From assembly GCA_026387175.1 (NCBI GenBank), contig JAPLME010000006.1, positions 44,078-108,077 on the forward strand: 64,000 nucleotides of DNA, written 5' to 3'. This DNA is from Candidatus Omnitrophota bacterium (GTDB lineage Bacteria; Omnitrophota; Gorgyraeia; 2-01-FULL-45-10). The notes beneath the pieces were generated by a model. The model made no database searches. It had not been told where the DNA came from and saw only the letters and a list, made by a program, of their open reading frames with translations. The stretch's first letter is position 1; each line of letters starts with the position of its first letter. The translations under genes were made by a program, and so were the position numbers. Of this stretch, positions 33,846 through 64,000 are shown in pieces.

Positions 33846-34211
33846 TTACCTTACTCTCTTCATAGTGTATGATTTCGCATCTATAACAAAATCCGGATCG
33901 GCACTCCTGAGGCGAGGATAGAGATAATAGACCGCTCTCCTCGATTCCATGTCGCCCTCTTCTAGGCCTTCGATCTTATATGTGCTATTTTCAGGCATCT
34001 TCGATTTGCAGTAGACTAAAAATTCGTATAGCTTGTCACCAGTAACGTAAGCATGTTTACCCTCGAGGGTCCTCGTTAAGAGAGCCTTGTAGTCATTGAT
34101 ATTCTTCTTCACGAATAGCTCTCTCGCAAAAAAGCCTATCCAGAGTGCAACCCAGGCGGCGAAAAACGCTTTTAAGATTGCTTCGGTCACTTCGTTCCCT
34201 CGCAATGACAT
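33846..34211 (-). CDS. Hypothetical small protein with one N-terminal TM helix
   Basis: 121 aa ORF immediately downstream of radical SAM gene 1. No family recognised. Confidence 0.4.
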   Translation of the reverse strand: MSLRGNEVTEAILKAFFAAWVALWIGFFARELFVKKNINDYKALLTRTLEGKHAYVTGDKLYEFLVYCKSKMPENSTYKIEGLEEGDMESRRAVYYLYPRLRSADPDFVIDAKSYTMKRVR

Positions 34212-35593
34212 TAACTTGCCACTATCCAGCGCACAAAGCGCCGGGCTAAAAATCCGAAATGTTTTACCGACTGTATCGACTTCAGCTGGTACAGTATGAT
34301 ATGCGACCTCAAATAAAATTTAGCGAAGGCCAGGCGGTGCAGGCTCTTCAGCTCTTTTCTTGTTATTCCACGAGGCACGTAAGCGGCATTTGTAAAATAA
34401 AACCGTTCCCAGTCCACATCCTTTAATTCTCCGCTCGCCAATAGCTTTTCATAGCTCTCCGTTCCGGGAAACGGCAGATATGTGAAAAAGTTGGCCCTCT
34501 TGAGCGGAAGCTCCACGGCGAAATCTATGGTCTGTTTGATAGTCGCCACTGTCTCGTCGGGAAATCCCAGTATGAAGAAGCCCGCTATATCTATGCCCGC
34601 CCTGTCGATCCTGTTAACGCATTCCCTTATCTTGGCCACGGTGATATTTTTTTTCATGGCTCTTAGTACTTCATCCGAGCCGGACTCGATCCCAAGCGAT
34701 ATCATGTATAGCCCCGTCTCTTTCATCAGGGCCAGAAGCTCATCATCGAGCGCGTCCATCCTGACGCCGTTAGGGACGGCCCATGTCATGCCCAGATCCA
34801 GCTCCTTCAGCTTCCGTAAAAGATCCTTCGCATACTCTTTATCCATCGTAAAATTGTCGTCGATTATATGGAATTCCTTTATTCCGAAATCTTTATTGAG
34901 CATCTTTATCTCGCCCAGAACGTTATCGATGGACCTGCGACGTATCTTCCTTCCGGAGACTATCTTGCCGGCGCAAAATGTGCAGGAATAGGGGCAGCCT
35001 CTCGTAACCATGATGGGCGCTATCGGAAACTGCTTAAAGAAAGCGCCATGCTGCGACTCCGGATACTCCTGTGGCTTTATAAGATCCCAGGCCGGAAGCC
35101 CAAGGCTATCCAGGTCATCCACGATTATCTTAGGATTTATCTTTATAGCGCCGCCTTCCCTGAATCCGAGGCCCGGTATTCCGGAGAAATCCTTTGGCCC
35201 CTTCTCGACCGCGTTCACAAGCTGAGGGAATCCTTTCTCCGCCTCGCCGACAAATAGAAAATCGAGGTCCTTCTCGGCCTTGAGCGTTGCCTCCGGCAGG
35301 GCCGAAGAGTGCGGCCCACCTATTACGGTCACGATATCTTTATTGAGGTTTTTTGCCGCGCGGAGCGCCAGCCTTATGAACGGAAGGTCGAACGTATAAC
35401 ATTGCAGCCCGAGGATATCCGGGTTATGCTCTTTAAGGATAGGCACAAATTTATCGATCGTGAGATTATCCTTGATGCAGTCCAGGAGCATTACATCATG
35501 CTCTTTCCTGATCGCGCTCGCCAGGTATCCCAGGCCGAGAGACGGCTGGATATGATCGCTCTGATTATAAGGCTTAACCAGAAGTACTTTCAT
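34211..35593 (-). CDS. Cobalamin-binding (class B) radical SAM enzyme, paralog 1
   Basis: N-terminal B12-binding Rossmann-like domain (VLLVKP...LGLGYLAS...GGPH) followed by the radical SAM CxxxCxxC motif (RGCPYSCTFC). Start set at MKVLLVKP; the ORF opens at 35710. Confidence 0.8.
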   Translation of the reverse strand: MKVLLVKPYNQSDHIQPSLGLGYLASAIRKEHDVMLLDCIKDNLTIDKFVPILKEHNPDILGLQCYTFDLPFIRLALRAAKNLNKDIVTVIGGPHSSALPEATLKAEKDLDFLFVGEAEKGFPQLVNAVEKGPKDFSGIPGLGFREGGAIKINPKIIVDDLDSLGLPAWDLIKPQEYPESQHGAFFKQFPIAPIMVTRGCPYSCTFCAGKIVSGRKIRRRSIDNVLGEIKMLNKDFGIKEFHIIDDNFTMDKEYAKDLLRKLKELDLGMTWAVPNGVRMDALDDELLALMKETGLYMISLGIESGSDEVLRAMKKNITVAKIRECVNRIDRAGIDIAGFFILGFPDETVATIKQTIDFAVELPLKRANFFTYLPFPGTESYEKLLASGELKDVDWERFYFTNAAYVPRGITRKELKSLHRLAFAKFYLRSHIILYQLKSIQSVKHFGFLARRFVRWIVAS

Positions 35594-35597
35594 GAGC

Positions 35598-36296
35598 TCA
35601 GTTAACAAACCTGTATTTAATGATCGCCCAGAGCGCGCCGAAACCGTGTTTCCAGGATATCTTCTTCCCTTCGGCATAACTTCTGCCGTAATAGGATATC
35701 GGCATCTCATAAATCCTCAAGGACTTATCCTTCAGGATCTTCGCGGTAAGCTCGGGCTCGACCGAAAAATCGTTCGACTTTATATCTATACCATCTATGA
35801 CCTTCTTTCGGAACATCTTATAGCACGTCTCGATATCTGATAATGTGGAGTTATATAAGAAGTTCATCATGAACGTAAGGAAGCTGTTCCCTATCTTGTG
35901 CCAGAACATATGCACACGCTGCGGCTTGCCGCCCGACAGCCTGGAGCCGTAGACAACATCGGCCATACCATCCTCTATCGGAGCAGCCATCTCCACAAAC
36001 TCGTTCGGATCGTACTCGAGGTCCGCATCCTGCACGGTGACTATCTCGCCTGTAGCAGCCTTAAAGCCCGTCCGCAATGCCGCGCCTTTGCCGCTATTCT
36101 TTTCATGGAGCACTACTTTCACTCTGGGATCAGCTGCGACTTTCGCCAGGACATCTCTCGTGCCGTCCGTGGACCCGTCATCGACTATTATCAGCTCTTT
36201 CACCATGTCGAGCTTCAACACTTTATCCATTATCTTCGTGACCGTATTCTTTTCGTTATAGACGGGCATCACGACCGACAGGATCTTCTCTCGCAT
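35598..36296 (-). CDS. GT2 glycosyltransferase, DPM1/ArnC-like (polyprenyl-phosphate sugar synthase type)
   Basis: 232 aa soluble GT2: VVMPVYNE...IIVDDGSTDGT...DADL (DXD). Confidence 0.7.
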   Translation of the reverse strand: MREKILSVVMPVYNEKNTVTKIMDKVLKLDMVKELIIVDDGSTDGTRDVLAKVAADPRVKVVLHEKNSGKGAALRTGFKAATGEIVTVQDADLEYDPNEFVEMAAPIEDGMADVVYGSRLSGGKPQRVHMFWHKIGNSFLTFMMNFLYNSTLSDIETCYKMFRKKVIDGIDIKSNDFSVEPELTAKILKDKSLRIYEMPISYYGRSYAEGKKISWKHGFGALWAIIKYRFVN

Positions 36297-36313
36297 AATT
36301 CACGTCCTTTTAA

Positions 36314-37387
36314 TTAAAATACTTTCGATTTCCGCTCTAAAAGCGTTAACAGGCTCTCCTTATCCGGGCCGACGATAACGTCCGCGCCGTGCAGGCTCTT
36401 TGTGATATTCAACAGCCTTCCGAAGGATCTATTATCCGTCAACAGGACCTCAACTTTCTTCTTCTTTTTACGCTTCAGTATCTTGTATATCGACGCAACG
36501 CCGAACAGCAAGGGGTTGACATCCACCCGCCTTATATCAAAATGATCGATGGTTACGGGCCAATTCAACCCTTTCTTCAGGAATATCATGATCTGATGCC
36601 CATGTCTCGCCACGCTTGTAGCGATCTCATCGGCCTTCTCATTGGACAACGGCCCGTCTATGAAATATCCTACCCTCACATGCCTTCCCCACCGCTCAAA
36701 AAATATTTTCTCGTTATCACTGAAGAGGTCTTTGTTATTCTTCAAAGTCCTGAAGCTCACATTTTCCTTATGATATACGTACGCCGCCTTGGCGCGTGCC
36801 GTCTTATAACCGAGTGCCTGCGCTCTCTTGCAGTAATCCGTATCGTCAAAGTATCCGACATGGTAGATCTCGTCGAGGAGGCCGACGCGCTTGATCGCTT
36901 CTTTGGTGACCAGCATGCAGAAACCGCGGCATGTGTAGAGTTCCTGTATCTGTCCTTTGAACCCCTTCAAGGTGAGAGCATACTCATCTATCGACCTTTC
37001 TCCCGGGAACTGCCCGGACGTATTACTCGACGGGTTCAATAGTCCGATGGACGGGTTCGCCTCAATAACGTCCACCATCTCTTCGAGCCAGCCGGATGCG
37101 GCGATCGTATCGTTATTCATGATGCACAGGTAAGGCGCGTCCGAAACGACCACGCCCTGGTTCACCGCCTTTACGAATCCTAGGTTCTTATCGTTCCGTA
37201 TCAATAGAAGGTCCAGGCCCTTATTCTCTTTAAGGCCCGAGAGATAGCTTTCGGTCGGGGCCTCGCTTCCGTTATCGATGACTATGAGCCTGTAAGGATA
37301 ATTCGTATTCTTCAATATCGAATCTATGCACTCGCGCGTCACTTCGAGCTGATTCCAGACGGGAATTATAATATCGCACTTACTCAT
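36314..37387 (-). CDS. GT2 glycosyltransferase (paralog family A, member 1)
   Basis: MSKCDIIIPVWNQL...IVIDNGS...MNNDT. Paralogous to 38933-39946, 39943-40992 and 40982-42139. Confidence 0.75.
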   Translation of the reverse strand: MSKCDIIIPVWNQLEVTRECIDSILKNTNYPYRLIVIDNGSEAPTESYLSGLKENKGLDLLLIRNDKNLGFVKAVNQGVVVSDAPYLCIMNNDTIAASGWLEEMVDVIEANPSIGLLNPSSNTSGQFPGERSIDEYALTLKGFKGQIQELYTCRGFCMLVTKEAIKRVGLLDEIYHVGYFDDTDYCKRAQALGYKTARAKAAYVYHKENVSFRTLKNNKDLFSDNEKIFFERWGRHVRVGYFIDGPLSNEKADEIATSVARHGHQIMIFLKKGLNWPVTIDHFDIRRVDVNPLLFGVASIYKILKRKKKKKVEVLLTDNRSFGRLLNITKSLHGADVIVGPDKESLLTLLERKSKVF

Positions 37388-38147
37388 CTTTCTTCACAAG
37401 CTCCCAGTACTTCGCCCATTTTAAAAAATTGATGAACGCGAACAGGATCCCGAAGATAAGCCCGTAAATGCCTTCTTTATACCCCTGTTTCTTCACATAA
37501 GACTTCCAGAATATTTTGAATGTCTTGTTCACAAGGGCCTTCTTTATCAGGCGCTCGCTTAATATGCCTTCAGTTTCGAGCATCTTTTTGGCCGCGATAC
37601 CGGCATACCTGTTCTGCCTTTGAACAAATTGATCGATCGAATCGAATGGATAATGATTTACATCAGCGTCGATCACGCCCATAGCGCCTTCATATACCGG
37701 CACCTCATGAACTTCACCTTTGTACTTAACATGTTTCCTATTAACCAGGTTGGGTATGTAATGATGGAACCCGCCATGGTCCATCGAGTGGCCTAAGAAG
37801 AAGTTTCTCCTCCTGAATTTATAAATTACTACATCTTCGTTTCCGGAGAGTGCCTTCTCCAGCTTCTTCCTGAAACTATCCGTAACGACGTCATCGGCGT
37901 CTATATGGAGAACCCAATCGTGCTTCGCATTATCGTTGCCTACATTCCGCTCATCGGCGAATGATCCGGAAAATTTATGATCGACTACGCGAGCGCCTAG
38001 CGACTTCGCTATCTCAATGGTCTTGTCCGTGCTGAAACCGTCAACCACGACTATATCATCCGCCCAGATGACGTTCTCAAGGCACTTGGCAATACGCTTC
38101 TCTTCGTTCTTAGTGATAATCGCTACAGTGATCTTAATCTTTTCCAT
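37380..38147 (-). CDS. GT2 glycosyltransferase (paralog family B, member 1; core-type WaaE/KdtX-like)
   Basis: VAIITKNEE...VVDGFSTD...DADD. Start set at MEKIKITV; the ORF opens at 38180. Confidence 0.7.
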   Translation of the reverse strand: MEKIKITVAIITKNEEKRIAKCLENVIWADDIVVVDGFSTDKTIEIAKSLGARVVDHKFSGSFADERNVGNDNAKHDWVLHIDADDVVTDSFRKKLEKALSGNEDVVIYKFRRRNFFLGHSMDHGGFHHYIPNLVNRKHVKYKGEVHEVPVYEGAMGVIDADVNHYPFDSIDQFVQRQNRYAGIAAKKMLETEGILSERLIKKALVNKTFKIFWKSYVKKQGYKEGIYGLIFGILFAFINFLKWAKYWELVKKDE

Positions 38148-38931
38148 GACAGCAGCAGCAACTCTCCTTCTTAGGTTCATTGTCGAGCATCTCTTTATAC
38201 TTCACGTAACTCATAAATTGATATAGCGCGCCCGCCCACGAAATAGTAAATCCCAGGAGGCCGTCTTTGAACCCGCCCTTCTGTACATACCCTTTCAGAA
38301 ATCGCGAGAGGCCTTTGCGGTACATCTTTATAAAATTAATATTACGGCGCTCCTTATACCACTTCTTTGCCTCGAGCGTTGTCTGGTTATTTATGCTTAC
38401 AAAGAAATCATGAAAATCCCTGTAAGAATAATGAATGATATCCTTCTTGAGATGGCCGCACGTGCCGTCGATAAATACCCTTGGGTGGACCTCCGCTTCC
38501 TCATATTTGAAGAAACGCTTATCGAAGAGCCTGACCTTCGCGGCAGGATACCAGCCGCTATGCCTTATCCACCTCTTACCCAGATATGACTTAATGGGTA
38601 TGGTATAGGCCTTATCTTTCATCTCGCCTTTCAATAGATTCGTAATCTCTTCGGCGAGCTCCGGAGTAACGCGCTCGTCCGCGTCCAGGCTGAGCACCCA
38701 ATTGTTCTTCGCGAGCGAGTAGGCGTAATTCCTGTGTTTGCCCTCTATGTCCATCTTACGGCTGAACACTTTGTCCGTAAACCCTTTGGCTATCTTCACG
38801 GTATCATCAGTGCTGGCATCGTCGAGGATTATGATCTCATCCGCCCATGACGCGCTCTCGAGACAGGCCGCTATGTTATCCTCTTCATTCTTCGTGATCA
38901 CTACAATTGAGACAGGCGCTTTACCGGGCAT
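38134..38931 (-). CDS. GT2 glycosyltransferase (paralog family B, member 2)
   Basis: VSIVVITKNEE...ILDDASTD...DADE. Paralog of 37380-38147. Confidence 0.7.
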   Translation of the reverse strand: MPGKAPVSIVVITKNEEDNIAACLESASWADEIIILDDASTDDTVKIAKGFTDKVFSRKMDIEGKHRNYAYSLAKNNWVLSLDADERVTPELAEEITNLLKGEMKDKAYTIPIKSYLGKRWIRHSGWYPAAKVRLFDKRFFKYEEAEVHPRVFIDGTCGHLKKDIIHYSYRDFHDFFVSINNQTTLEAKKWYKERRNINFIKMYRKGLSRFLKGYVQKGGFKDGLLGFTISWAGALYQFMSYVKYKEMLDNEPKKESCCCCHGKD

Positions 38932-38932
38932 C

Positions 38933-39946
38933 TTAATAGTACCTCACTTTCGCTTTATGGATAAATGAAAGGGCATCTAAAAACTTCCAGAATTTCTGGC
39001 CTCCTACGAATATCTCGCTGAAACGCTTCTTCTTCGTCAGTATCTTGAACGCCGTATTCATATAAAAATTATTCTTATCCGCCGTCACCATAGTTATATT
39101 GGAATGGACGGGCATCTTCACTTCGTCTTTAGCGAAGAACCATACCCAGTTACCGTCCCTGGCAAGCTTGATGGAATCCATCTCCAGCCTCTTCAGGATA
39201 TTGACGTCGTAAAGGTCGAGAATATAAGCGATCCTTTTGGGCTTGCCCCACCTGAACTCGAATATCTCTTTATTCCTGTTAAAATCTTCATCAAACGTCT
39301 TCACCTTTCCAAAGGAAGAGCTCTCCCTGTGATATACATATGCGCCGCATGCCCTGACGCACCTGTATCCTTCTTTGACGGCTTTACGCGAGAAGTCTGT
39401 ATCCTCGAAATTGCCCATCCCGTATATCTCGTCAAAGAGTCCTATCTTTCTTATTAACTCGCGTTTGATCAGCATGCAGAACCCTATCGCCGCGCCGAGT
39501 TCCACAGATCGGCCGGAAAGCCGCCTGATCTTTTCGGCATAGAGGTCCACCGGTTCCCCATCCGCCGGCTTCTGGCCCAGATTATTGCTCGACGGATTCA
39601 CTATCCCTATATCGGCCGAACTGTCGGCGACAGCTATCATCTCCTTTAGCCAGTCTTTTGTAACGATCGTATCGTTATTCAGAAGGCAGAGGAATGGGGC
39701 CTCCGAAGCGGTCATGCCCTGGTTAACGGCCCTCACAAAACCTAAATTTTCACTATTCCTGATCAGTCTAAGCGGCAGCTCGCCGGATGCCTTGAGGCCT
39801 TCGAGATAATTTACGGTCTCCTCGCCGCTTGCGTTATCTATTACAATGAGCCCGTATTCACCGGGCGTATTCTTCCTGATCGAATCTATGCAATCTTTCG
39901 TAAAAGAGAGCTGATTCCAGACCGGTATTATTATATCACACTTCAT
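38933..39946 (-). CDS. GT2 glycosyltransferase (paralog family A, member 2)
   Basis: MKCDIIIPVWNQLSFTKDCIDSI...IVIDNASGEET...LNNDT. Confidence 0.75.
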   Translation of the reverse strand: MKCDIIIPVWNQLSFTKDCIDSIRKNTPGEYGLIVIDNASGEETVNYLEGLKASGELPLRLIRNSENLGFVRAVNQGMTASEAPFLCLLNNDTIVTKDWLKEMIAVADSSADIGIVNPSSNNLGQKPADGEPVDLYAEKIRRLSGRSVELGAAIGFCMLIKRELIRKIGLFDEIYGMGNFEDTDFSRKAVKEGYRCVRACGAYVYHRESSSFGKVKTFDEDFNRNKEIFEFRWGKPKRIAYILDLYDVNILKRLEMDSIKLARDGNWVWFFAKDEVKMPVHSNITMVTADKNNFYMNTAFKILTKKKRFSEIFVGGQKFWKFLDALSFIHKAKVRYY

Positions 39947-40992
39947 CTCGTATCCTTAGCCGCCGAATCGGCTATTTGGCAGACTCTATCCGCCCCTCTT
40001 TCGACATCGACGCAATGCACCGCCGGGCAGTCTCCGGATAATTTCATGGCGACTCCGGGGTTGTCGACGAACACCAGGTTATAGCGCTTAGCCTCTTTTT
40101 TAATAGAATTTATAAATAAGGTAAGCGATAATAACGCTCCCGGAAAGATTTTCGGGAAGATCCTCTCCCTTATATTTATGTGCCGTATTCCCAGAGGTTC
40201 GGCCAAATTCCATAAATAGACTATGTGCTGCCGTCTTGCAAGAAGGAGAAGCACATCTTTAAGGCGCTCCTTGTCCAAAGTTTTCGTAACTATAAAGACT
40301 ATCCTGAGCCTCCTGCCCCATTTCGAATAAAATAACTGTTTATTCTTTTCGTGAAGCTCCCGCCGGGCTTTGTCTTTAAAAACGGTTGAAAATGTAGAAT
40401 CCCTAATGTGCTCGACCACTATGTCATTGGCGCGAATACACCGAAAATTAGCGCGTATAGCTCTGACCGAGAAATCGTCATCATCATAATATCCCAGGCC
40501 GTATGCCTCATCCAGGCCGCCTATCTTGTCGATGACCGCCCTCTTTATCAGAACGCAGTAGCCCCTGCAAAAATCTATCTCGATATAAGGATATCTTTCC
40601 GCAATAGCGGCGTTCTTGGTCTCAAAACGCGGGTTCACGAGCCCGGCGCCGGGGTTCGCTTCGACGGCCGCTATCAACTTATAGAGCCATCCGGGCGTTC
40701 TCACGACCGTATCATTGTTCATAATGCAGATATAAGGGCCCGACGACATATTTATTCCCTGGTTGACGGCCTTTACCCATCCGAGGTTTGTCCCGTTCCG
40801 TATAAGCACGGAATTTCTATTCGTCCTGACAAACTCTTCCAGACACTTTCTTGTCTCTTCGCCGCTCGCGTTATCGATCAGTATCAAATGATACGGCGTA
40901 TCGGAATTATTGACGATGCTCTCCAGACAGTTCTTTGTAAGCGCGGCCTCGTTGAATACCGGTATTATGATGTCGACCGTCCTATCTGCCAT
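39943..40992 (-). CDS. GT2 glycosyltransferase (paralog family A, member 3)
   Basis: VDIIIPVFNE...ILIDNASGEET...MNNDT. 4-nt overlap with the downstream paralog. Confidence 0.75.
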   Translation of the reverse strand: MADRTVDIIIPVFNEAALTKNCLESIVNNSDTPYHLILIDNASGEETRKCLEEFVRTNRNSVLIRNGTNLGWVKAVNQGINMSSGPYICIMNNDTVVRTPGWLYKLIAAVEANPGAGLVNPRFETKNAAIAERYPYIEIDFCRGYCVLIKRAVIDKIGGLDEAYGLGYYDDDDFSVRAIRANFRCIRANDIVVEHIRDSTFSTVFKDKARRELHEKNKQLFYSKWGRRLRIVFIVTKTLDKERLKDVLLLLARRQHIVYLWNLAEPLGIRHINIRERIFPKIFPGALLSLTLFINSIKKEAKRYNLVFVDNPGVAMKLSGDCPAVHCVDVERGADRVCQIADSAAKDTR

Positions 40993-42139
40993 CGCGTGTC
41001 TCTTTTACAGCCAAAGCGGTTTTTCGGCCTTCTTCCAGCCAATCGCACGCGCGTTTCAGCGAAGGCGGTTTTATTACAGACGATCCGGTCATTTTTGCTA
41101 TAGGATAAACAAGCCCGCCAGCCTTATCTTCGAAGGAGACTATAGCATCGAATCTCTTATCCTTCATACGTTTACGCAACCTCTCGATCATTTTCCCTGA
41201 GATTGTGAGATCGAATAATAACCGGGGGAGATTAAAATAGTCTATCCTTATATTCTGGTGCGGCGCAAGGCTCTTTTCCCTCATCGTCCCTTCTATTAAT
41301 TTTCTTATCGCGTCTTCGCCTTGCGCGGAATTGATCCATAGATGGACCCAGGACCATTCCCTGGCGAGGCCGTAGACATACTCTGTCAGCCCTGATATCT
41401 CGGCGCGATCGAGCGTATTGAGCGAGGATAAGACGCCTATGCGGAGATGCTTCCCCCACTTATCGTAATAAATCTTTTGGTTTCTCTTCACCCACTCTTC
41501 CCTGTTACCGGCCTTATCGAAGGAGGCATGAATGCGGTGGTAGACATAGGAGTCACGTATGGAGACAGACCTGTATCCCGCCTTATGGGCCCTTATCGAG
41601 TAATCTGTATCATCGTAGCCGCCTATGCCGAAAGCCTCATCCAGAACGCCTATCTTATCTATCAGCTCCCTTTTCACGAGCATACAGAAGCCCTGGCACT
41701 GGTTCATCTCCATATACTCGCCCTTATAGCGCTCGAGCGTCCGCGCATAAGCGTCGACTGAAGCATCGCTATGGCCGCCGCACTGGGGGTTTATAAGACC
41801 GACATCGGGATGGGTCTCGGCAAACTCCACCATACTCTCTAACCATCCGGGAGCCGGGATCGTATCATTGTTCATCATGCAAACGTAAGGAGCGCTGGAG
41901 ATCTTAAGTCCCTGGTTAACCGCCTTTATATATCCGGCGTTCCCCTTATTTCGTATAAGCACCGTCTTATCCGGGTTATCAGAGGCAAACTTGCGCAGGT
42001 ACTCTTCCGTATCTTTCTCGCTTGCGTTATCGATAAGAATAAGCCTGTAAGGATAGCGGGTATTTCGTAAGATATGCTCCAGGCAATCTTTGGTGAAAGA
42101 TAACTGGTTCCAGACAGGGATGATTATGTCGCACTTCAT
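40982..42139 (-). CDS. GT2 glycosyltransferase (paralog family A, member 4)
   Basis: MKCDIIIPVWNQLSFTKDCLEHI...ILIDNASEKDT...MNNDT. Confidence 0.75.
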   Translation of the reverse strand: MKCDIIIPVWNQLSFTKDCLEHILRNTRYPYRLILIDNASEKDTEEYLRKFASDNPDKTVLIRNKGNAGYIKAVNQGLKISSAPYVCMMNNDTIPAPGWLESMVEFAETHPDVGLINPQCGGHSDASVDAYARTLERYKGEYMEMNQCQGFCMLVKRELIDKIGVLDEAFGIGGYDDTDYSIRAHKAGYRSVSIRDSYVYHRIHASFDKAGNREEWVKRNQKIYYDKWGKHLRIGVLSSLNTLDRAEISGLTEYVYGLAREWSWVHLWINSAQGEDAIRKLIEGTMREKSLAPHQNIRIDYFNLPRLLFDLTISGKMIERLRKRMKDKRFDAIVSFEDKAGGLVYPIAKMTGSSVIKPPSLKRACDWLEEGRKTALAVKETRDGR

Positions 42140-43488: not shown

Positions 43489-43492
43489 AGGA

Positions 43493-49630: not shown

Positions 49631-49644
49631 CCACTTTTCCTTTT

Positions 49645-54715: not shown

Positions 54716-55609
54716 TCATCCTTTCTTGGCGATCGCGACGATATCGCCTGACGGTATTATAAAATTATGATACTTTAACCGCGGAGGCAGGCGTCCGATA
54801 AGGCCTTCCATAAGGCTTACAGCGCTGCTCTTCTTTTTTGCCGATTCCTCGCTCTTCTGCCTCATATACTCCCCGGCATAATAGGGATTTATCGATTTGA
54901 AAGCGCTTTTAAATCCCAGTATCTTGAAACCCATCGTCCTGAGAAAAGCGTTAAGGTTCTTTTTCGAAAAATATACAAGATGCTGCCTGTGGATATAAGG
55001 CCATCTCTTTCCCGTGAACTTCGCGAAAAGGCTGCTTGTATCTACAGTAACTATAACAGCTATCCCTCCGGGCCTCAGCATCTTATACACCTTTTCCACC
55101 GCGATCCTGGCGCCGTTAAGGTGCTCCAGCACATCGGTCATTATTATCATATCATAATGATCCGACGGCATCTCTTTCGCTCTCACAAAATCAAGGGCCT
55201 CCACCCTGGAACCGAATCTGGCCTTTGCGACGCGTGCGGCCTCCTCCGATATGTCCACGCCGTAGACATCCCATCCGAACTCCTCTCCGACTTCCATGCA
55301 TATACCTGTTGCGCACCCTATATCTAAAAGCCGGCCGCGATGAGGCGTAAATCGGGAAAGCGACTTAAATAGGCACCGGAACGTCAGATGTCGCATCTTC
55401 CTGTGCATCTCCTCATCTTTTCCGACAATGCCCCATACCTCATGATATTTCGCATATACCCGCTCTATCTCTTCATTATTTAATATAGGGTAACTTAGCC
55501 AGAGCCCGCATCCGCTGCACCTGATTATGGAATACTTACCGTCCATATCATAAAGCGGAAGGTACTCCGCGGAACCGCATACATCGCATTTGATCTTATA
55601 TGCCATCAC
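54716..55609 (-). CDS. Class I SAM methyltransferase with an N-terminal Cys4 zinc ribbon (paralog of 51949-52851)
   Basis: CDVCG...CSGCG ribbon, then LLDIGCATGI motif I. Confidence 0.7.
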   Translation of the reverse strand: MMAYKIKCDVCGSAEYLPLYDMDGKYSIIRCSGCGLWLSYPILNNEEIERVYAKYHEVWGIVGKDEEMHRKMRHLTFRCLFKSLSRFTPHRGRLLDIGCATGICMEVGEEFGWDVYGVDISEEAARVAKARFGSRVEALDFVRAKEMPSDHYDMIIMTDVLEHLNGARIAVEKVYKMLRPGGIAVIVTVDTSSLFAKFTGKRWPYIHRQHLVYFSKKNLNAFLRTMGFKILGFKSAFKSINPYYAGEYMRQKSEESAKKKSSAVSLMEGLIGRLPPRLKYHNFIIPSGDIVAIAKKG

Positions 55610-56853
55610 TTCACCTGGGCCTTCGCCGGCTGGGGGTTCTTGAACCGTTTCTCGATCGAATTGCGAAGCTTTATTATATCATCCGAGCTGAAGGCCTTCG
55701 TAGATATCTTAGTCGTGTAATCGCCGGGCCTGCCCTTGAACCATGCATGGTCATAATCGTCGGTAAAATTTATGTCGAAATTCTCTTTATTCTTATAGAT
55801 AAGCGATCCGGGATATGGAGTATAGACCGTGATATCTATATCGTCGAGACCGGCCTCTTCCAGAAAATCCGTCGTCTCCTTTATCGACTCCCTGTTCTCG
55901 CCGGGAAGGCCTATTATAAAAAAGCCTTTCACGCGGATACCATATCTGTGGCATAGCTTTATAGCTTCCAGGTTCTTCTTTACCGTCTCGCCTTTATTGA
56001 TCGTATCGAGTATGCGCTGGGAACCCGACTCGATCCCGACGCCCACTTCTACGCAGCCGGATTCCCGCATCCTACGCAATATATCCCCGTCAACGGTATC
56101 AGACCGTATAAAGCACCTGTATATAACGCTCAATTGCTTCAATCGATCGCATATCTCTTTCATCCTTTTTCTATCGACCGTCATCGTATCATCGAAGAAC
56201 ATGACCGCCTCATAGCCGTATCGCTTTACCAGTAACGATACCTCTTCGAACACATTCTGCGGGCTCCTCATCCTAAGGGTCTTGCCCCAGGCGTTATTCG
56301 CGCAGAATTTACAACCGAAAGGACAGCCGCGCGAGGTCACCAGCGTCGTGGTCAATTTACCGTCAAGATAATACCGATAGCTCTTGATGTCGATCGTGTC
56401 CCTGTCCGGGAACGGGAAGCTGTTGATATCGGCATAGTCGCACTGGGTTACCTGAGACTGCTCCGTTGAGGCCTCTTCCCGCCGTACGATATCAAGGATA
56501 GCCCTCTCCCCCTCCCCCTTCACCACAACATCGAACTCGCTAAAAGCGTCTTCGGGCTTGCCCGAAACGTGGGGGCCGCCCAGCACATATAGCGGGGATC
56601 TGGCCCGGTTTATCTTTTTAACCTGCTTTACCAGGCGCATAACGGTCGGAAACTGCGGAGTATTGGAATAAAAGCCCACGATATCGGCGTCGATAGATTC
56701 CGGAAGAGGCTTCTCGTCATTCATATCGATGTAAGAGATATCGTTGTAGCCGTTCTGTTTGAGATACGCGATAAGGTAGAGAAGCCCGAGCGACGGAAAT
56801 ACTTTCTCGTTTATCAGAAAATCGGAATTTGGATTTATGAAAAGTATTTTCAT
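55606..56853 (-). CDS. Cobalamin-binding (class B) radical SAM enzyme, paralog 4
   Basis: 415 aa; N-terminal B12-like domain (ILFINP...LGLLYLIAYL...GGPH) and SRGCPFGCKFC. Confidence 0.8.
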   Translation of the reverse strand: MKILFINPNSDFLINEKVFPSLGLLYLIAYLKQNGYNDISYIDMNDEKPLPESIDADIVGFYSNTPQFPTVMRLVKQVKKINRARSPLYVLGGPHVSGKPEDAFSEFDVVVKGEGERAILDIVRREEASTEQSQVTQCDYADINSFPFPDRDTIDIKSYRYYLDGKLTTTLVTSRGCPFGCKFCANNAWGKTLRMRSPQNVFEEVSLLVKRYGYEAVMFFDDTMTVDRKRMKEICDRLKQLSVIYRCFIRSDTVDGDILRRMRESGCVEVGVGIESGSQRILDTINKGETVKKNLEAIKLCHRYGIRVKGFFIIGLPGENRESIKETTDFLEEAGLDDIDITVYTPYPGSLIYKNKENFDINFTDDYDHAWFKGRPGDYTTKISTKAFSSDDIIKLRNSIEKRFKNPQPAKAQVK

Positions 56854-56860
56854 TGTTCTA

Positions 56861-58033
56861 TCATCCCTTATGTTTCTCTTCCAGGCACTCCTCGTACAGC
56901 TTCATTATATCCGCGGCGAGCCTGCTCTTTGAGTATTTCGTCCGGACGGATTCTCTGCCATGCGCCCCCATCGCCAGCCGCCCGGAGCGGTCATCCATCA
57001 ACCTGATGATCTTGCGGGCGAGATCCGCATGATCGTTCGAATCGGCCAGCAGCCCGTTGTAGCCGTCCTTGACGAGATCGACGACGCCTCCTACGGCGGT
57101 CGCTATAACGGGTTTGGCCGACGCCATGGCCTCGATCAACGATACTGGAGTTCCCTCATTCAGAGACGTCAGCACCAGCAGGTCCAGGTCCGAATATACG
57201 GATGCCAGATCCTCTATCCAGCCCGTAAATATGACATGATGCTCCAGGCCGATGGCCTTCGCTTCCTCTTTAAGAAACTGGTTAAGCTCTCCGTCCCCTA
57301 CTACCACAAACCTGATATCGGCGCCGGGTCTTTCATTTAATACGGATCGCGCCGCCTTCAGAAACATCTTATGGTTTTTGATAGGGACCAGGCGCCCCAC
57401 TATCCCGATAAGCATGACCTTATCATCGACACCCAGTCTTTTTCTGAACCAGCCTCTGTTCTTATCGCATTCAAGGAACCTGCCAAGATCAAGACCAAGC
57501 GGTATGACGACGCTCTTCCGCTCCTCTGCGACCCTCAGTCTGTTGATCAAATCATTGCGCACCGCCTCGCTGACGGTTATCACCCTGTCCGTATATAACG
57601 CCAAAAATTTTTCTACGCAAACAAATATCCTGGCCTTCAGCGGACTGAAATAACCGTCGAAGACGTGCCCATGGAAAGTGTGGATCTTTATAGGGACGCC
57701 GGCGAATATCGCGGCGAGCCTGCCGAGCGCTCCCGCCTTAGCCGTGTGCGTATGCACAATGTCGGGTTTCTCGGACCTCATGATGCTGTAAAGCTTTAAA
57801 AACGTCTTGAGGTCATTTTTTAATGATATCTCCCTGCCCATCTCGGGAACGACAACAGGCTCTACACCATAGTCTTTGGCGAGATAGCCCATATCTCCCT
57901 CCGACTTGCTAACCGTTCCGCAAACAAGCGTATCCTTATATCCATTGCCGTTTAAAGAGCTCGACAGCAATATCGAATGTATGGCCGGACCACCTATATT
58001 AAGCCGAGTTATTATCCTGAGGATCTTAACCAT
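56861..58033 (-). CDS. GT4 (GT-B) glycosyltransferase
   Basis: 390 aa; N-terminal Glyco_trans_4-like domain (HTHTAKAG) and a C-terminal Glycos_transf_1 domain with an E-x7-E region. Confidence 0.75.
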   Translation of the reverse strand: MVKILRIITRLNIGGPAIHSILLSSSLNGNGYKDTLVCGTVSKSEGDMGYLAKDYGVEPVVVPEMGREISLKNDLKTFLKLYSIMRSEKPDIVHTHTAKAGALGRLAAIFAGVPIKIHTFHGHVFDGYFSPLKARIFVCVEKFLALYTDRVITVSEAVRNDLINRLRVAEERKSVVIPLGLDLGRFLECDKNRGWFRKRLGVDDKVMLIGIVGRLVPIKNHKMFLKAARSVLNERPGADIRFVVVGDGELNQFLKEEAKAIGLEHHVIFTGWIEDLASVYSDLDLLVLTSLNEGTPVSLIEAMASAKPVIATAVGGVVDLVKDGYNGLLADSNDHADLARKIIRLMDDRSGRLAMGAHGRESVRTKYSKSRLAADIMKLYEECLEEKHKG

Positions 58034-58045
58034 GGTTCTTCGGTC

Positions 58046-58324: not shown

Positions 58325-58331
58325 CTTCCGA

Positions 58332-58838
58332 TCAGCCCTTATTAATCACTTTTATGACCGTCCAGGTGACATTATAATTTTTTGTTTCGAAACTGAACCC
58401 AAGGCCTATATTAAACACTCCCGCTCCGGCATACATGCGTAAGCTATCGAGCCTTTTATACGCAAGCATTTCAATTAAAACGGTTACTCTTTTAGAAGTC
58501 GGGTCAATAAACGCCTTCGCTTCTCCGGCTGCGGCAGAATCTTTTAGCGTCATCTCCACAGGCTCGACTTTGAGTATCTTTTCTATGCGCGCTATAATAG
58601 TCCCATCGGCACCCCGCATCACATCGCCCTCTTTCATGATATCGGTCACAAAAACAGGTACCAACGCAACGGCCTCGCATCGTATATGCACATTTTCGAC
58701 CTTCACCCATGAAGGATCATCGGCGAGCCTTATCCATTTAAACGCGAAGAGCGCAATAAAGGCTATGACGAAAAGAACGAACAGATCAAAGATATTTATC
58801 AGTCCGAAAATCCTTCCCTTTTCATCGATAACCTTCAT
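58332..58838 (-). CDS. DUF4330-like protein (N-terminal TM anchor plus beta-rich domain)
   Basis: 168 aa; MKVIDEKGRIFGLINIFDLFVLFVIAFIALFAF fits the remembered DUF4330 N-terminal pattern. Uncertain. Confidence 0.4.
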   Translation of the reverse strand: MKVIDEKGRIFGLINIFDLFVLFVIAFIALFAFKWIRLADDPSWVKVENVHIRCEAVALVPVFVTDIMKEGDVMRGADGTIIARIEKILKVEPVEMTLKDSAAAGEAKAFIDPTSKRVTVLIEMLAYKRLDSLRMYAGAGVFNIGLGFSFETKNYNVTWTVIKVINKG

Positions 58839-58852
58839 ACCGTCTCCCTTTT

Positions 58853-60860: not shown

Positions 60861-61634
60861 CTAACTTTTTAATTTATTCTTAACAAGTATGCCCGGCAGA
60901 TGATCTACCCAGTTATACGCTCCCGATACCTTCATCTTAAATCTAAAGATATTGTCGGTGCCGTATACCCGTATCCTTCTGGCAACGAAAGGCTCTTCTT
61001 CCGAATTATCCATACCCATGATATTTGTGAACGCTTTTGAATATCCTGCGTCCCTTAGCAGGCGTTCGGTGGCTTTATTGAACGATCTTCGGCTGCCGAA
61101 AGGATAGGAAAAATACCTGACATCGCATCCCACCATATCCCTTATCCTTTCCCGCGATGCCGACGCCTCGTGACTGGCCGACTTCTCATCCAGATCGGAC
61201 ATCGTCTTGTGAGTGCATGAATGGGAACCGATTTCGACGCCGCAGGAGCTCATATCCTTGACCTGCGCCCATGTTAACGGCCTTAACGGCTGAGCGTTAT
61301 TGAAAAGCCGATCGGATCCGAGCCTGGAATCGATAAAATCCGTAGTGATGAACAGGATCGACCGCGCGCCATACCGCTTCAGCAGCGGAAAAGCGTTTGT
61401 ATAAACGTTCTCGAATCCATCATCGAAGGTAAGTAGATAGCTTCTGCCACAAGTCGAGAGATAGCGCATCTGTTCCTCAAACCGCTCCGGCGTCACATTG
61501 ATCTTTTGCGGATCCGACGAAGGATCTATATCGCCGATGGAATGATAGACGAGAACGACGTTCCGTTTACGGTAAAACGGCGTTATGAAAATATATGCGA
61601 GGAAGCTTATAAGGTCTTTAACGAGCTGCACCAT
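60861..61634 (-). CDS. Polysaccharide deacetylase (CE4 / NodB homology)
   Basis: 257 aa; LTFDDGFENVY (TFDDG motif) and downstream His-containing motifs of the NodB domain. Confidence 0.75.
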   Translation of the reverse strand: MVQLVKDLISFLAYIFITPFYRKRNVVLVYHSIGDIDPSSDPQKINVTPERFEEQMRYLSTCGRSYLLTFDDGFENVYTNAFPLLKRYGARSILFITTDFIDSRLGSDRLFNNAQPLRPLTWAQVKDMSSCGVEIGSHSCTHKTMSDLDEKSASHEASASRERIRDMVGCDVRYFSYPFGSRRSFNKATERLLRDAGYSKAFTNIMGMDNSEEEPFVARRIRVYGTDNIFRFKMKVSGAYNWVDHLPGILVKNKLKS

Positions 61635-62382
61635 CTTTTACGGCCTTTACGACATAATTTATGGCTAAAAATCTGCTCGAAACAAAGTTAAGCTTTTTTG
61701 AAAGATAAAGAGATAGCCTCGGATTTATCCTATTCAATAGGGACAACCTGAAGACATGAAACACTGTCCGCTCAACCCTGAAACCGTATTTCTTTAATAA
61801 AAGTTCCAGTTCTTTTCCACAAAGCAGCTTGGGCTCAAAATCGTAATTCATAAAAGACCCGGAGATGTCCGCCTTGATTATCTTTCGTGAGACCTTAAGA
61901 AACGCGCGTAGATAATAATCGAGTTTGTTCGTAATGCTGGAAGCATTCGGCGCGGTGAAGATGGCGATACCATTCTTCCCTGTAACGCGGGCGACCTCCC
62001 TGATGCCGGCCTCAACGTTATCGAGATATTCCAGCACCCCAGCGCATACCACAGCGTCAAAGAAACCATCCTGGAACCCAAGCTTTTCTATGTTTCCTAC
62101 GGAAAATTCGGCGTTCCTGAACTTTTTACCGTTTGCAATGGCTATCATTTCGCTTGAGACATCGACCCCATACAGCCTGCCACACCTTCCGGAAAGCTCA
62201 TCCGTATATACGCCGGGACCGCATCCTATATCCAATATTCTCTTGCGATCGGCTCCAAGCATAGTAAGCACGATTCTTTTTCTTTCCGCAAATATAAAAG
62301 ATCTCAGATCGTTAATCCGCCCATATTTACCGTTGTACTCAACAGCCTGGTCATCAAAATATTTAATTACTTTTTCTTTCAT
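61618..62382 (-). CDS. Class I SAM-dependent methyltransferase
   Basis: 254 aa; ILDIGCGPGVYT motif I (Methyltransf_11-like). Confidence 0.75.
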   Translation of the reverse strand: MKEKVIKYFDDQAVEYNGKYGRINDLRSFIFAERKRIVLTMLGADRKRILDIGCGPGVYTDELSGRCGRLYGVDVSSEMIAIANGKKFRNAEFSVGNIEKLGFQDGFFDAVVCAGVLEYLDNVEAGIREVARVTGKNGIAIFTAPNASSITNKLDYYLRAFLKVSRKIIKADISGSFMNYDFEPKLLCGKELELLLKKYGFRVERTVFHVFRLSLLNRINPRLSLYLSKKLNFVSSRFLAINYVVKAVKDGAAR

Positions 62383-62389
62383 AATATAC

Positions 62390-63553
62390 CTATGATTTTA
62401 GCCGCAATTCCTTCGAGATCTCTTCTTTTACCGCATCGACAAGCCCCGAGGCAATGACCTCGTTTCCTTTCTCGGTCAGATGAACTATATCATAATAGAC
62501 TTCTTCGGAAGGGTGTTTCAAAAGTTCAGTGTGAATATCGACTGTCTTTACGGACATATCCCGCGCGATCTCGTCTATCGCGTTCCGCGTCAACGCGTGA
62601 AGATAGTAATAGATATCTTCCCTCGTCACAGGCTGTCCGGCATTCACCTTTACCCTAATGGCCTCTACCTGCTTAGGGTCGAAGTACATATCGTATCCTT
62701 TTATAACCGTTCCCTGCTTAGCCAGTATGATCCCTATGCCGTGTTCTCTGGCCTTCGCGACCAGTTCCCGCAGATTTTTCGAAAACTCCCGCATGATCTT
62801 GGCAATAAGCTCTTTGCTATACACCTTTTTCTTAAAAATACAATTCTTCTCTATTATGATCGAAAATAAGAGGCTCTTCGAATATAATAAATTGAAAAGA
62901 TGCGGAACCGCCGCAAAGTGCCTCGTGACAGGGCTAAGGTCATCCACCCTATGATAATCATTAAACGCTTCGTAGAAAGTTATCAGGTCCGGCCGGTATC
63001 TGAGAATTTCGTTCGTGAAAAGGCTCAGGATGGTTTTTGATGTGCTGCCCATATAACCGGCGTTCATAACCTCGGCCCTCACCGGCAGATCGATCGCATT
63101 CAGCTTTTTCTCGAGTATAGACGGATAATCGTTTCCGTCTTCGACCTCAAGCCCTTCCGTAGAAGACCCACCAAGGCAAAATATCCTGTAAACACCATCC
63201 GGCTTTTCTGCCGAAAATTCTTTGCCTCTAAATCCAAGACTGTTGACCGCTACCTTAAATTCCCTGGATCCATAACGCTGATTATAAACTCCCGGCTTGG
63301 ACTTGCAATATTTCGTGCCGTCAGGCATTTTAATGATCTCATGCTTTACCCTGTCATACATAACGATCTTCTCGGAAGGCCCATTATTCCCGGCACCCTG
63401 ATGCCTCACATCAAAACCATAGGAAAGATACCGTCCGGTCTTATACTTAAGAGCGAAATAGGTGCGCGCGCCAAGCTCAAGACAGGTGACAAGCAGTATT
63501 AACGGTATAAACGAAAAGATAACTATCTTCAGGGGATGCTGCTTATTTACCAT
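62390..63553 (-). CDS. Membrane-anchored SGNH/GDSL-family hydrolase or O-acetyltransferase accessory protein (AlgX/AlgJ/DltD-like)
   Basis: 387 aa; N-terminal TM helix and a block-I-like FCLGGSSTEG motif (GDS(L)-type) downstream. Confidence 0.55.
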   Translation of the reverse strand: MVNKQHPLKIVIFSFIPLILLVTCLELGARTYFALKYKTGRYLSYGFDVRHQGAGNNGPSEKIVMYDRVKHEIIKMPDGTKYCKSKPGVYNQRYGSREFKVAVNSLGFRGKEFSAEKPDGVYRIFCLGGSSTEGLEVEDGNDYPSILEKKLNAIDLPVRAEVMNAGYMGSTSKTILSLFTNEILRYRPDLITFYEAFNDYHRVDDLSPVTRHFAAVPHLFNLLYSKSLLFSIIIEKNCIFKKKVYSKELIAKIMREFSKNLRELVAKAREHGIGIILAKQGTVIKGYDMYFDPKQVEAIRVKVNAGQPVTREDIYYYLHALTRNAIDEIARDMSVKTVDIHTELLKHPSEEVYYDIVHLTEKGNEVIASGLVDAVKEEISKELRLKS

Positions 63554-63564
63554 GCGTAGGCCTT

Positions 63565-64000
63565 CTATTTTTTTGTAAAATAATTTTTCGAATGCGATGC
63601 GGTCTTCAATAGCTGCATCAATCCTATATTGTCAATCCTCGATATGCCTATTGCATAGATCAGCTGGAACATCTTTTCATATAGCGCTTCCAAGGGAAGC
63701 TTTATCAAAAATTTCACCAGGCCCGCGGGAAGACGTAAGGCGACACCGAGCGCAAAGACCTTCTGGAGGTTTTGCATCTGGCGGGCCTTCTCCATCTTGA
63801 CGGGGCTCGTCATGAAATATGAGCTTTCCATATTTCCGAAATCATGGCCGCTCGACAGGTAACCGTTGCTTGAAGCGTATTCGAATATCTCCGTTCCGGG
63901 ATAGGGCTGAAGCAAAGAGCACCAGGCATACGTCGGATGGATGCGCTTGTTCAGCAAAAATGTCTTAAACGCATTCTCGATGGTCTCCCCGGGAGTTCCG
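63565..64000 (-). CDS. Cobalamin-binding radical SAM enzyme, paralog 5 (C-terminal part only; gene continues beyond the window end)
   Basis: The reading frame is open to the window edge. The translation ...GTPGETIENAFKTFLLNKRIHPTYAWCSLLQPYPGTEIFEYA matches the C-terminal region of the other four paralogs (PGET...LxPxPGT). Confidence 0.6.
   Translation of the reverse strand, partial: GTPGETIENAFKTFLLNKRIHPTYAWCSLLQPYPGTEIFEYASSNGYLSSGHDFGNMESSYFMTSPVKMEKARQMQNLQKVFALGVALRLPAGLVKFLIKLPLEALYEKMFQLIYAIGISRIDNIGLMQLLKTASHSKNYFTKK

Follow-up and report, generated by a model that had tools for sequence, protein, structure and literature searches.

In a 64-kb stretch of the genome of a Candidatus Omnitrophota bacterium (64,000 nucleotides of contig JAPLME010000006.1; hereafter the window), an envelope-glycan locus contains five paralogous genes, RS1 to RS5, for enzymes that combine a B12-binding domain with a radical S-adenosylmethionine (SAM) core. 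RS1, RS3 and RS5 are each directly preceded by a gene whose product is predicted to load a sugar onto polyprenyl phosphate, respectively a GT2 glycosyltransferase, a UbiA-family enzyme and a fusion of a methyltransferase with a GT2 domain. From gene context only, we infer that the RS enzymes would alter polyprenyl-phosphate-linked sugars, probably by C-methylation, before a GT-C glycosyltransferase transfers them to an envelope glycan, and the chances of this reading are judged to be about even. An earlier account made from the letters of the same DNA (the sequence-only reading) had proposed that each paralogue tailors a different sugar; the glycan context of that proposal stands, while the proposal itself is too vague, the conserved partner being specifically a polyprenyl-phosphate sugar synthase. 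Such a partner, often accompanied by a GT-C gene, points to the tailoring of lipid-linked monosaccharide donors. The genes concerned are listed here by window position.

32453..33832, minus strand: GT-C glycosyltransferase (PMT_2) of module A; polytopic, with many hydrophobic segments (PMT_2 32.2 bits against a cut-off of 26.1)
33846..34211, minus strand: 121-aa protein with one transmembrane helix and no family match
34211..35593, minus strand: RS1, B12-binding and radical SAM, 460 aa (CPYSCTFC at residue 200)
35598..36296, minus strand: short soluble GT2, 232 aa, of the polyprenyl-phosphate type (best matches AglJ, PpgS, ArnC, PgfS and dolichyl-phosphate-hexose transferase)
42136..43488, minus strand: RS2, B12-binding and radical SAM, 450 aa (CIYNCSFC at residue 190)
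49645..51048, minus strand: RS3, B12-binding and radical SAM, 467 aa (CPYSCTFC at residue 208)
51048..51938, minus strand: UbiA-family polyprenyl-phosphate phosphoribosyltransferase, DPPR-synthase type (NF008977, 300.7 bits against 234)
51949..52851, minus strand: class-I SAM methyltransferase of module B (61% orthologue in contig L009)
52858..54705, minus strand: GT-C (PMT_2) of module B, 615 aa (35% orthologue in L009)
54716..55609, minus strand: class-I SAM methyltransferase, its start overlapping the RS4 stop by 4 nt
55606..56853, minus strand: RS4, B12-binding and radical SAM, 415 aa (CPFGCKFC at residue 177)
63565..64000, minus strand: RS5, C-terminal 144 aa only (residues 329-472 of 472); full gene at 8571-9989 of contig L001

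The GT2 gene at 35598-36296 ends 4 nt upstream of RS1, the stop codon of the UbiA gene overlaps the start of RS3, and on the Logan contig SRR25046533_54029 (L001), which overlaps the end of the window, the methyltransferase-GT2 fusion gene (L001 7195-8574) overlaps the start of RS5. A PMT_2 gene lies near each of these three carrier-loading genes. The resulting modules read GT2, RS1, 121-aa open reading frame (ORF) and PMT_2 (module A); RS4, methyltransferase, PMT_2, methyltransferase, UbiA and RS3 (module B); and, mostly outside the window, PMT_2, two methyltransferases, methyltransferase-GT2 fusion and RS5 (module C). Class-I methyltransferase genes are found in modules B and C, with none near module A. 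The UbiA protein passes the curated decaprenyl-phosphate phosphoribosyltransferase cut-off, matches PF01040 (80.5 bits against 34.2) and has multiple transmembrane segments. The GT2 domain of the RS5-adjacent fusion shares the best matches of the RS1-adjacent GT2, whereas the other seven GT2s of the window best match MftF, PgaC, EpsD or rhamnosyltransferase types, not the polyprenyl-phosphate type. RS2 adjoins a GT9 gene and chain-building GT2 genes, and RS4 adjoins a GT4 gene and a methyltransferase gene, with the 615-aa GT-C beyond it. The 121-aa ORF of module A was considered as a GtrA/ArnE-type flippase and rejected for its single transmembrane segment and lack of a family match.

Gene fusions link the three activities. 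Among the best 120 matches of RS3 or RS5 there was no fusion of a radical SAM enzyme with a GT2 or GT-C domain; the sole fusion in those matches was a methyltransferase-radical SAM protein (P0020, 717 aa, Logan) that has a B12-binding domain and is 50% identical to RS3. Separately, another class-I methyltransferase-radical SAM fusion is encoded at L096 5986-7854, and a methyltransferase-GT2 fusion comparable to that of L001 7195-8574 at L010 6542-7825, both methyltransferase-GT2 fusions having polyprenyl-phosphate-type GT2 best matches below the cut-offs.

The sequence-only reading had claimed the same two-domain architecture for all five proteins. RS1 to RS4 pass the Pfam cut-offs for PF02310 (B12-binding; 53-76 bits against 32.1) and PF04055 (Radical_SAM; 65-108 bits against 29.5). 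For RS5 the claim could not be read from the window, because its B12 domain and CxxxCxxC motif lie outside; the fragment matches no Pfam family and resembles the C-terminal portion of the HpnJ model only weakly, while the full-length protein of 472 aa on L001 has both domains. Exactly one CxxxCxxC is present in each of the five, that of RS5 being read from L001. GGPH was correctly reported for each of RS1 to RS4, and VLLV and LGLGYLAS are present in RS1 and RS3. The spacing of one such gene every 6-8 kb was also correct, as were the start codons at 35593 and 43488; the start of RS3 is more likely the ATG at 51048, as in the 467-aa public protein, than 51051. A motif search showed DxHxxG to be absent from RS1-RS4, and such absence is usual in class B radical SAM enzymes. 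No transmembrane segments were seen in RS1-RS4, so the enzymes would be cytoplasmic.

RS3 is identical to NCBI MCX5677931.1 (467 aa), encoded on a 242-kb contig, and its AlphaFold (AF2) model (mean predicted local distance difference test score 91.7) matches class-B structures over both domains, MgmA being the best PDB match and TsrM, AprD4, OxsB, CysS and TokK the other leading ones. Among solved proteins, sequence comparison puts MgmA/QCMT (9CCB) and AprD4 (6FD2) nearest, with scores of about 90 bits, then TokK, TsrM, CysS and OxsB; AprD4 is the best solved relative of RS2 and RS4, tied-best for RS1 and second-best for RS3. The fold class of the RS enzymes, B12-binding plus radical SAM (class B), is thus established, and they are putative binders or users of cobalamin. 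AprD4, a radical SAM 1,2-diol dehydratase of apramycin biosynthesis, and MgmA resemble the RS enzymes in both sequence and fold, but identity is only about 20-24% and their substrates are paromamine (AprD4) and a protein glutamine (MgmA).

None of RS1 to RS5 reaches an NCBIfam equivalog cut-off. HpnJ, BchE and Sden_1168 give the best matches, scoring 130-190 bits where the cut-offs are about 480-580, and HpnJ is the best or second-best match of RS1 and RS4. Membership was rejected for HpnJ (TIGR03471; 133-183 bits against 577.6), with no squalene-hopene cyclase or hpn genes in the window, and for AprD4 (NF033070; 113 bits against 500). It was likewise rejected, with scores mostly three- to six-fold under the cut-offs, for BchE (TIGR02026), PhpK, Sden_1168, HpnR, BzaD, MgmA (TIGR04014), TIGR04295 and TIGR04072, and for the ladderane-type model. 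Nearest to any cut-off came the hypothetical-equivalog model TIGR04013 (117-134 bits against 251). Methylation by the RS enzymes is an assumption. The nearest characterised relatives by score include the non-methylases HpnJ, BchE and AprD4, so ring contraction, deoxygenation and epimerisation have to be considered as well.

Pairwise identity among the five paralogues is 27-42%, and each has a closer relative in another genome: RS1 at 49.7% in L013, a metagenome-assembled genome (MAG) of Planctomycetota, and 44.8% in L011 (an 'archaeon' MAG); RS3 at 52% in other Omnitrophota and 50.5% in a Thermoleophilia MAG; RS2 and RS4 at 72% each in L009, a second Omnitrophota-like contig; and RS5 at 39% in L022. 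The paralogues are for these reasons ancient, and recent duplication or lineage-specific expansion was rejected on the same grounds. That they might be near-identical copies of a housekeeping enzyme, a possibility raised with the original proposal, does not fit such divergence.

The gene combinations recur elsewhere: in other Omnitrophota, in one MAG each of the PVC group and of Thermoleophilia, in DPANN archaea and on a single viral contig. In six of six loci of the RS3 orthogroup (the window, L005 from Thermoleophilia, L008, L009, L091 and L092), a UbiA gene and a gene for a PMT_2-type or large unannotated protein (575-625 aa) lie within 4 genes, PMT_2 being only a weak match in three. Gene order varies among these Omnitrophota and Thermoleophilia MAG loci. 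No consistently associated DprE1/DprE2-like genes were found in the six loci, where a lone adh_short gene (L008) lies apart from the module, and the modules showed no gene for a PAP2 phosphatase. At L005 13430-14950 and L091 1357-3222, between UbiA and the radical SAM or PMT_2 gene, lie genes for proteins of 506-621 aa that match no Pfam family and may be unrecognised GT-C-like transferases.

Contig L009 shows the window locus in rearranged form, with six or more B12-radical SAM genes; in it the RS2 orthologue sits between GT9 and GT2 genes and the RS4 orthologue directly upstream of a 625-aa PMT_2. The RS1-GT2 pair is orthologous in MAG L011 (RS1 45%, GT2 46%), again with PMT_2 adjacent, and the PVC-group MAG has the order PMT_2, GT2-methyltransferase, PMT_2 and two radical SAM genes. 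A wider scan, with one genome per species, gave 80 distant relatives in named genomes, 27-40% identical and spread over many phyla of bacteria and archaea. Of the 75 usable loci, 24 have two or more B12-radical SAM genes, and multi-copy glycan loci of this kind are common in uncultivated anaerobes. The most extended, L022 (MAG 'bacterium isolate Modern_marine.mb.49', 1-11324), has a tandem row of seven B12-radical SAM genes on a single strand with a GT9 gene after them, and includes the closest RS5 relative among the genome-scan loci. In an unbiased Pfam scan of 129 immediate flanking ORFs, Glycos_transf_2 was the commonest family (18, against 6 for the next), with a GT2 frequency of 11% at distance 1 and 2.5% from the fourth gene outwards (odds ratio 4.9, p = 9e-5). 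Ten adjacent GT2s were tested, and every one was of the polyprenyl-phosphate type by best match, all below cut-offs; PMT_2 lay within 4 genes at at least 5 of 16 GT2-radical SAM loci, including Woesearchaeota, Aenigmatarchaeota, PVC-group and Omnitrophota MAGs.

A scan of viral sequences yielded one locus only. It lies on a 45-kb contig listed in IMG/VR (L093, JGI 3300033148 Ga0366832_1002060, which is the same as L094, IMGVR_UViG_3300033148_008057), where a compact cassette of overlapping genes for PMT_2, a class-I methyltransferase and a B12-radical SAM enzyme 45% identical to RS3 occupies 5772-9401, with no synthase. The rest of the contig encodes YopX, two phage integrases, ParB, a DNA methylase and dozens of tiny ORFs. 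By analogy, the cassette looks like a phage surface-conversion module comparable to gtrABC.

The region from 30.7 kb to beyond 64 kb is, by its gene content, an envelope-glycan locus of the lipopolysaccharide (LPS)-core/O-antigen type. It contains Glycos_transf_4, Wzy_C, Glyco_transf_9 and GmhB-like HAD genes, and the Lip_A_acyltrans, LptC/LptA-like and LptB genes lie just downstream at 21587-23999, in agreement with the polysaccharide/LPS-like character first assigned to it. LPS is only a candidate for the acceptor of the glycan, which may be another glycoconjugate. In addition to the modules, the locus comprises the following genes.

30718..31920, minus strand: GT28/MGDG-synthase-like glycosyltransferase (Pfam MGDG_synth and Glyco_tran_28_C)
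31848..32456, minus strand: HAD phosphatase, GmhB/HisB-N-like (Pfam Hydrolase_like, HAD_2 and PNK3P)
36314..42139, minus strand: six tandem GT2 genes of chain-building type (four mutual paralogues at 34-45%, the other two at about 31%)
43493..44584, minus strand: GT9, heptosyltransferase family (Pfam)
44581..45843, minus strand: Wzy_C membrane protein, O-antigen ligase/polymerase-like (Pfam)
45809..46849, minus strand: WecA/MraY-type polyprenyl-phosphate N-acetylhexosamine-1-phosphate transferase (Glycos_transf_4)
46866..47834, minus strand: NAD-dependent sugar epimerase/dehydratase
47874..48638, minus strand: class-I SAM methyltransferase
48635..49729, minus strand: GT2 glycosyltransferase
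56861..58033, minus strand: GT4 (Glycos_transf_1)
58332..58838, minus strand: DUF4330 protein with one transmembrane helix
58853..60712, minus strand: Glycos_transf_1 and DUF218 fusion
60861..61634, minus strand: polysaccharide deacetylase family (Polysacc_deac_1)
61618..62382, minus strand: class-I SAM methyltransferase
62390..63553, minus strand: GDSL-like acylhydrolase/acyltransferase with an N-terminal transmembrane or signal segment

The gene at 30718..31920 is probably the downstream end of the locus, the uracil-DNA glycosylase (UDG) and PriA genes coming next. The limits of 34211-64000 originally given have to be widened accordingly: the locus starts near 30718 and extends 10 kb or more beyond the end of the window, for at least 43 kb in all. 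The transferases reported around the RS genes were confirmed by Pfam (eight GT2 genes, with GT4, GT9, WecA/MraY-type, Wzy_C and PMT_2), and between about 30718 and the window end are accompanied by the GT28-like gene. Of the GT-C transferases reported within 34211-64000, one is recognisable by Pfam there (52858-54705) and the second lies just outside (32453-33832). The count of at least five SAM methyltransferases was too high, as the same interval has four of class I; the locus as extended by L001 has eight. That extension adds the methyltransferase-GT2 fusion, two methyltransferases, a third PMT_2 gene (L001 4568-5815), a GT2, an epimerase, a radical SAM/SPASM protein, another methyltransferase, a HAD protein and a cytidylyltransferase. 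Its far part, L001 1-3660 (about 6-10 kb past the window end), encodes a CTP_transf_3 cytidylyltransferase, a Hydrolase_3 HAD protein, a 358-aa methyltransferase, an epimerase and the radical SAM plus SPASM protein of 353 aa without a B12 domain, and may be a nonulosonic- or Kdo-type acid sub-pathway with a sixth radical SAM enzyme. The six GT2 genes at 36314..42139 represent a local expansion, unlike the ancient radical SAM paralogues.

Positions 1-30000 are housekeeping in content (argD/B/J/C, rpsI-rplM, proS, ispG, rseP, dxr, cdsA, uppS, H+-PPase, purA, serA, clpP, tig, gap, fmt, priA and UDG) and also include lptB, the LptC/LptA-like gene and the lpxL-like acyltransferase gene. The minus strand carries all 59 non-nested ORFs of at least 100 aa in the window, and each 2-kb bin has a negative GC skew; such co-orientation over the whole 64 kb is extreme. 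Scans of the window for tRNA genes and Rfam families gave no match. The gene at 22309-23196 encodes a single 295-aa protein with LptC-like (residues 40-155) and LptA/LptD_N-like (194-274) domains, which may be a fused LptC-LptA bridge component beside lptB and the lpxL-like gene. Two further proteins stand among the housekeeping genes, a 129-aa ORF at 24179-24568 without a family match and a 434-aa protein at 25698-27002 whose sole match is a C-terminal CBS domain.

The locus would thus consist of ordinary chain-building glycosyltransferases together with three lipid-carrier decoration modules, each with a carrier-loading enzyme, one or two soluble radical SAM enzymes translationally coupled to the loader, methyltransferases (in B and C) and an ArnT-like GT-C of the PMT_2 family. 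A polyprenyl-phosphate monosaccharide would be made at the cytoplasmic face, by the UbiA-type enzyme from phosphoribosyl pyrophosphate (PRPP). The radical SAM enzyme would then take hydrogen from an unactivated sugar carbon, most likely for C-methylation via methylcobalamin, or otherwise for ring contraction of the HpnJ/Cds type, deoxygenation of the AprD4 type or epimerisation. O-methyltransferases may add further methyl groups, after which the altered donor would be flipped across the membrane and attached by the GT-C enzyme to lipid A-core, O-chain or another periplasmic acceptor. RS2, beside GT9, and RS4, beside a methyltransferase and the 615-aa GT-C, would be further tailoring enzymes of the same locus.

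Several known systems share parts of this proposed logic. In the Arn pathway (ArnC/ArnD/ArnE-F/ArnT) and gtrABC, a GT2 makes a polyprenyl-phosphate sugar that is optionally changed on the lipid (by the ArnD deformylase), flipped and transferred to LPS by a GT-C. ArnC is among the best matches of the GT2s here, below equivalog cut-offs, both in-window PMT_2 genes score above the cut-off, and the PMT_2-methyltransferase-radical SAM set on a viral contig recalls the gtr genes on prophages. Unlike in those systems, however, no ArnE/F or GtrA flippase was found here, and radical SAM chemistry as the proposed on-lipid step is without precedent there. The decaprenyl-phosphoarabinose pathway (UbiA/Rv3806c, DprE1/DprE2, Emb/Aft) is comparable in its UbiA enzyme, above the curated cut-off here, in the adjacent GT-C and in the alteration of the sugar while lipid-linked, as proposed here. 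The modules differ in that neither DprE1/DprE2 nor a PAP2 phosphatase was seen in them; in six of six loci that place is held by a B12-radical SAM enzyme together with methyltransferases.

Among characterised enzymes, HpnI/HpnK/HpnJ of the bacteriohopanetetrol cyclitol ether pathway and the calditol synthase Cds offer the closest likeness in order of events: a GT2 loads a sugar on lipid, a deacetylase may act and a radical SAM enzyme, of the B12 type in HpnJ, remodels the sugar. The locus differs from HpnJ in the low scores given above and in having no genes for hopanoids or glycerol dialkyl glycerol tetraethers (GDGTs), and from both in that the carrier would be polyprenyl phosphate and the product passed to a GT-C, whereas theirs stays on the lipid. 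The substrate of MoeK5 is a lipid-linked sugar, and the carbons methylated in the aminoglycoside and moenomycin pathways are sugar carbons. MoeK5 figures as a C-methylase of the moenomycin A pathway, and GenK/GenD1, Fms7 and MoeK5 methylate unactivated carbons in those pathways (review literature). These enzymes have the same class-B architecture and are likened to the RS enzymes by architecture; they belong to actinomycete secondary-metabolite clusters with one enzyme per step, whereas here a primary envelope-glycan locus in an uncultivated anaerobe holds five enzymes that have diverged.

A number of observations weigh against the proposed reading. The best matches of the polyprenyl-phosphate GT2s score about 60-220 bits against equivalog cut-offs of 325-529, and the type is therefore a class assignment rather than a function call. 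Neither RS2 nor RS4 directly adjoins a carrier-loading gene. The modules revealed no flippase, and nothing GtrA-, ArnE/F- or EamA-like was seen in the locus. Among the close solved relatives, AprD4 shares the fold yet is not known to bind cobalamin. ORF calling on the fetched loci of relatives was crude. Large polytopic proteins were found near 10 of 16 GT2-radical SAM pairs, against 14 of 43 in the comparison, a difference that was suggestive but not significant (p = 0.07); among the ten were three PMT_2 proteins above cut-off, one weak match, two flippases and four without assignment. In three of 11 closer-homologue contexts (L007, L095 and L096) no glycan genes adjoin, which makes the families functionally mixed; L095 and L096 are RS5-family contexts, from an Aenigmatarchaeota genome and a Proteobacteria MAG. 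Finally, adjacency fits action of the radical SAM enzyme on a nucleotide sugar before carrier loading as well as action after it, and cannot tell the two apart.

In the strongest of the rival explanations, a general form of the sequence-only proposal, the enzymes would tailor glycan sugars at the nucleotide-sugar stage, on a growing undecaprenyl-pyrophosphate-linked oligosaccharide or on the finished chain, and the adjacency to loaders would reflect only a shared pathway. It fits the same glycan-locus context and accommodates RS2, between GT9 and chain-building GT2s, and RS4, beside GT4. The characterised sugar-modifying relatives, the GenK group and AprD4, act on soluble glycosides. Nonetheless, the conserved neighbour is a polyprenyl-phosphate-type GT2 or UbiA rather than a chain-building GT2. 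The lipid-linked stage is favoured because the donor of UbiA is PRPP, an unlikely substrate for prior tailoring, because the phage cassette holds only GT-C, methyltransferase and radical SAM genes and no synthase, and because HpnJ and Cds act on lipid-linked sugars (review literature). Action at one of these other stages is accordingly considered possible, if rather doubtful.

The chemistry could also be different from that assumed. Some or all of the RS enzymes might not be cobalamin-dependent methylases but catalyse deoxygenation, ring contraction or epimerisation in the manner of AprD4, HpnJ, Cds or OxsB; for example, RS3 might turn polyprenyl-phosphate-ribose into another pentofuranose donor independently of O2, replacing DprE1/DprE2. 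The best NCBIfam matches HpnJ and BchE are non-methylases, and the standing of AprD4 among the solved relatives of RS1-RS4, the lack of consistent DprE1/DprE2-like genes at the UbiA-RS3 loci and the presence of a deacetylase in the locus, as HpnK in HpnIJK, would suit this view. Yet all the family scores are far under the cut-offs, the best structural match of RS3, MgmA, is a methylase, and characterised cobalamin-radical SAM enzymes are mostly methylases, C-methylation being the commonest chemistry of the class (review literature). On balance a non-methylase role is unlikely.

It is quite improbable that the substrate is a lipid (such as the polyprenyl carrier, the tail of a glycolipid or a lipid of the membrane), as with HpnP/HpnR, GDGT-modifying and ladderane-type enzymes. 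Matches to TIGR04072 ('lipid biosynthesis B12-binding/radical SAM') and HpnR, the UbiA and MGDG-synthase-like genes of the locus and an RS5 relative near a cis-prenyltransferase gene in an Aenigmatarchaeota genome speak for a lipid role, but the scores are 112-133 against a cut-off of 360, the locus holds no fatty-acid, isoprenoid-chain or hopanoid genes, and the conserved partners handle sugars. That the co-location is incidental, Omnitrophota and other anaerobes being rich in unrelated B12-radical SAM genes (for ribosomally synthesised peptides or cofactors) of which some fall in a large variable glycan island, is scarcely credible: the great size of the families (more than 2,400 and more than 1,400 matches) and the occurrence of some members in non-glycan contexts speak for it, but the start and stop overlaps with glycan genes, the orthologous pairs and triads kept across phyla despite shuffled order, the enrichment of GT2 at distance 1 and the lack of any B12-radical SAM paralogue in the housekeeping half of the window (1-30000) all argue otherwise.

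The combination in which polyprenyl-phosphate sugars would be remodelled by radical SAM enzymes is new, as is the implied substrate class; the enzyme superfamily and the Arn/Gtr/decaprenyl-phosphoarabinose-like pathway logic are known. Reviews of cobalamin-dependent (2022, 2026) and lipid-modifying (2026) radical SAM enzymes name no polysaccharide, glycan, LPS or polyprenyl-linked substrate, and no description of B12-radical SAM enzymes in polysaccharide, LPS or polyprenyl- or dolichol-phosphate contexts was found in the open-access full texts searched. In a preprint on Omnitrophota genomes, radical SAM comes up solely as a domain of giant proteins. The statement that the arrangement is not a described one thus holds for the literature searched, although it is not unique to this genome, the seven tandem genes of L022 being a case in point.

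More broadly, and tentatively, glycan biosynthesis in uncultivated anaerobic bacteria, in DPANN archaea and in one phage or more may include a widespread but unrecognised layer of B12-type radical SAM enzymes, which would remodel polyprenyl-phosphate monosaccharides by C-methylation, carbocyclisation, deoxygenation or epimerisation into novel GT-C donors not known from cultivated organisms. As part of the same possibility, UbiA and RS3 might provide an O2-independent radical route from polyprenyl-phosphate-ribose to a new pentofuranose donor, and the cassette might be mobile and used in phage-driven surface conversion.

Cobalamin-dependent enzymes are a major subclass of a radical SAM superfamily of more than 800,000 members, and the function of the uncharacterised ones is hard to predict. 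Should modification at the lipid-carrier stage prove true, a sizeable share of the orphan cobalamin-radical SAM enzymes would gain a substrate class, lipid-carrier-linked sugars, and the compact two- to three-gene modules of carrier-loading enzyme, radical SAM enzyme and GT-C would be open to expression tests. It would also suggest that the DprE1/DprE2 step in making arabinofuranose-type donors has an anaerobic alternative. Surface sugars of C-branched or carbocyclic structure would be predicted for Omnitrophota, DPANN archaea and further uncultivated anaerobes, and such unusual sugars would bear on host-symbiont contact, phage receptors and biomarkers.

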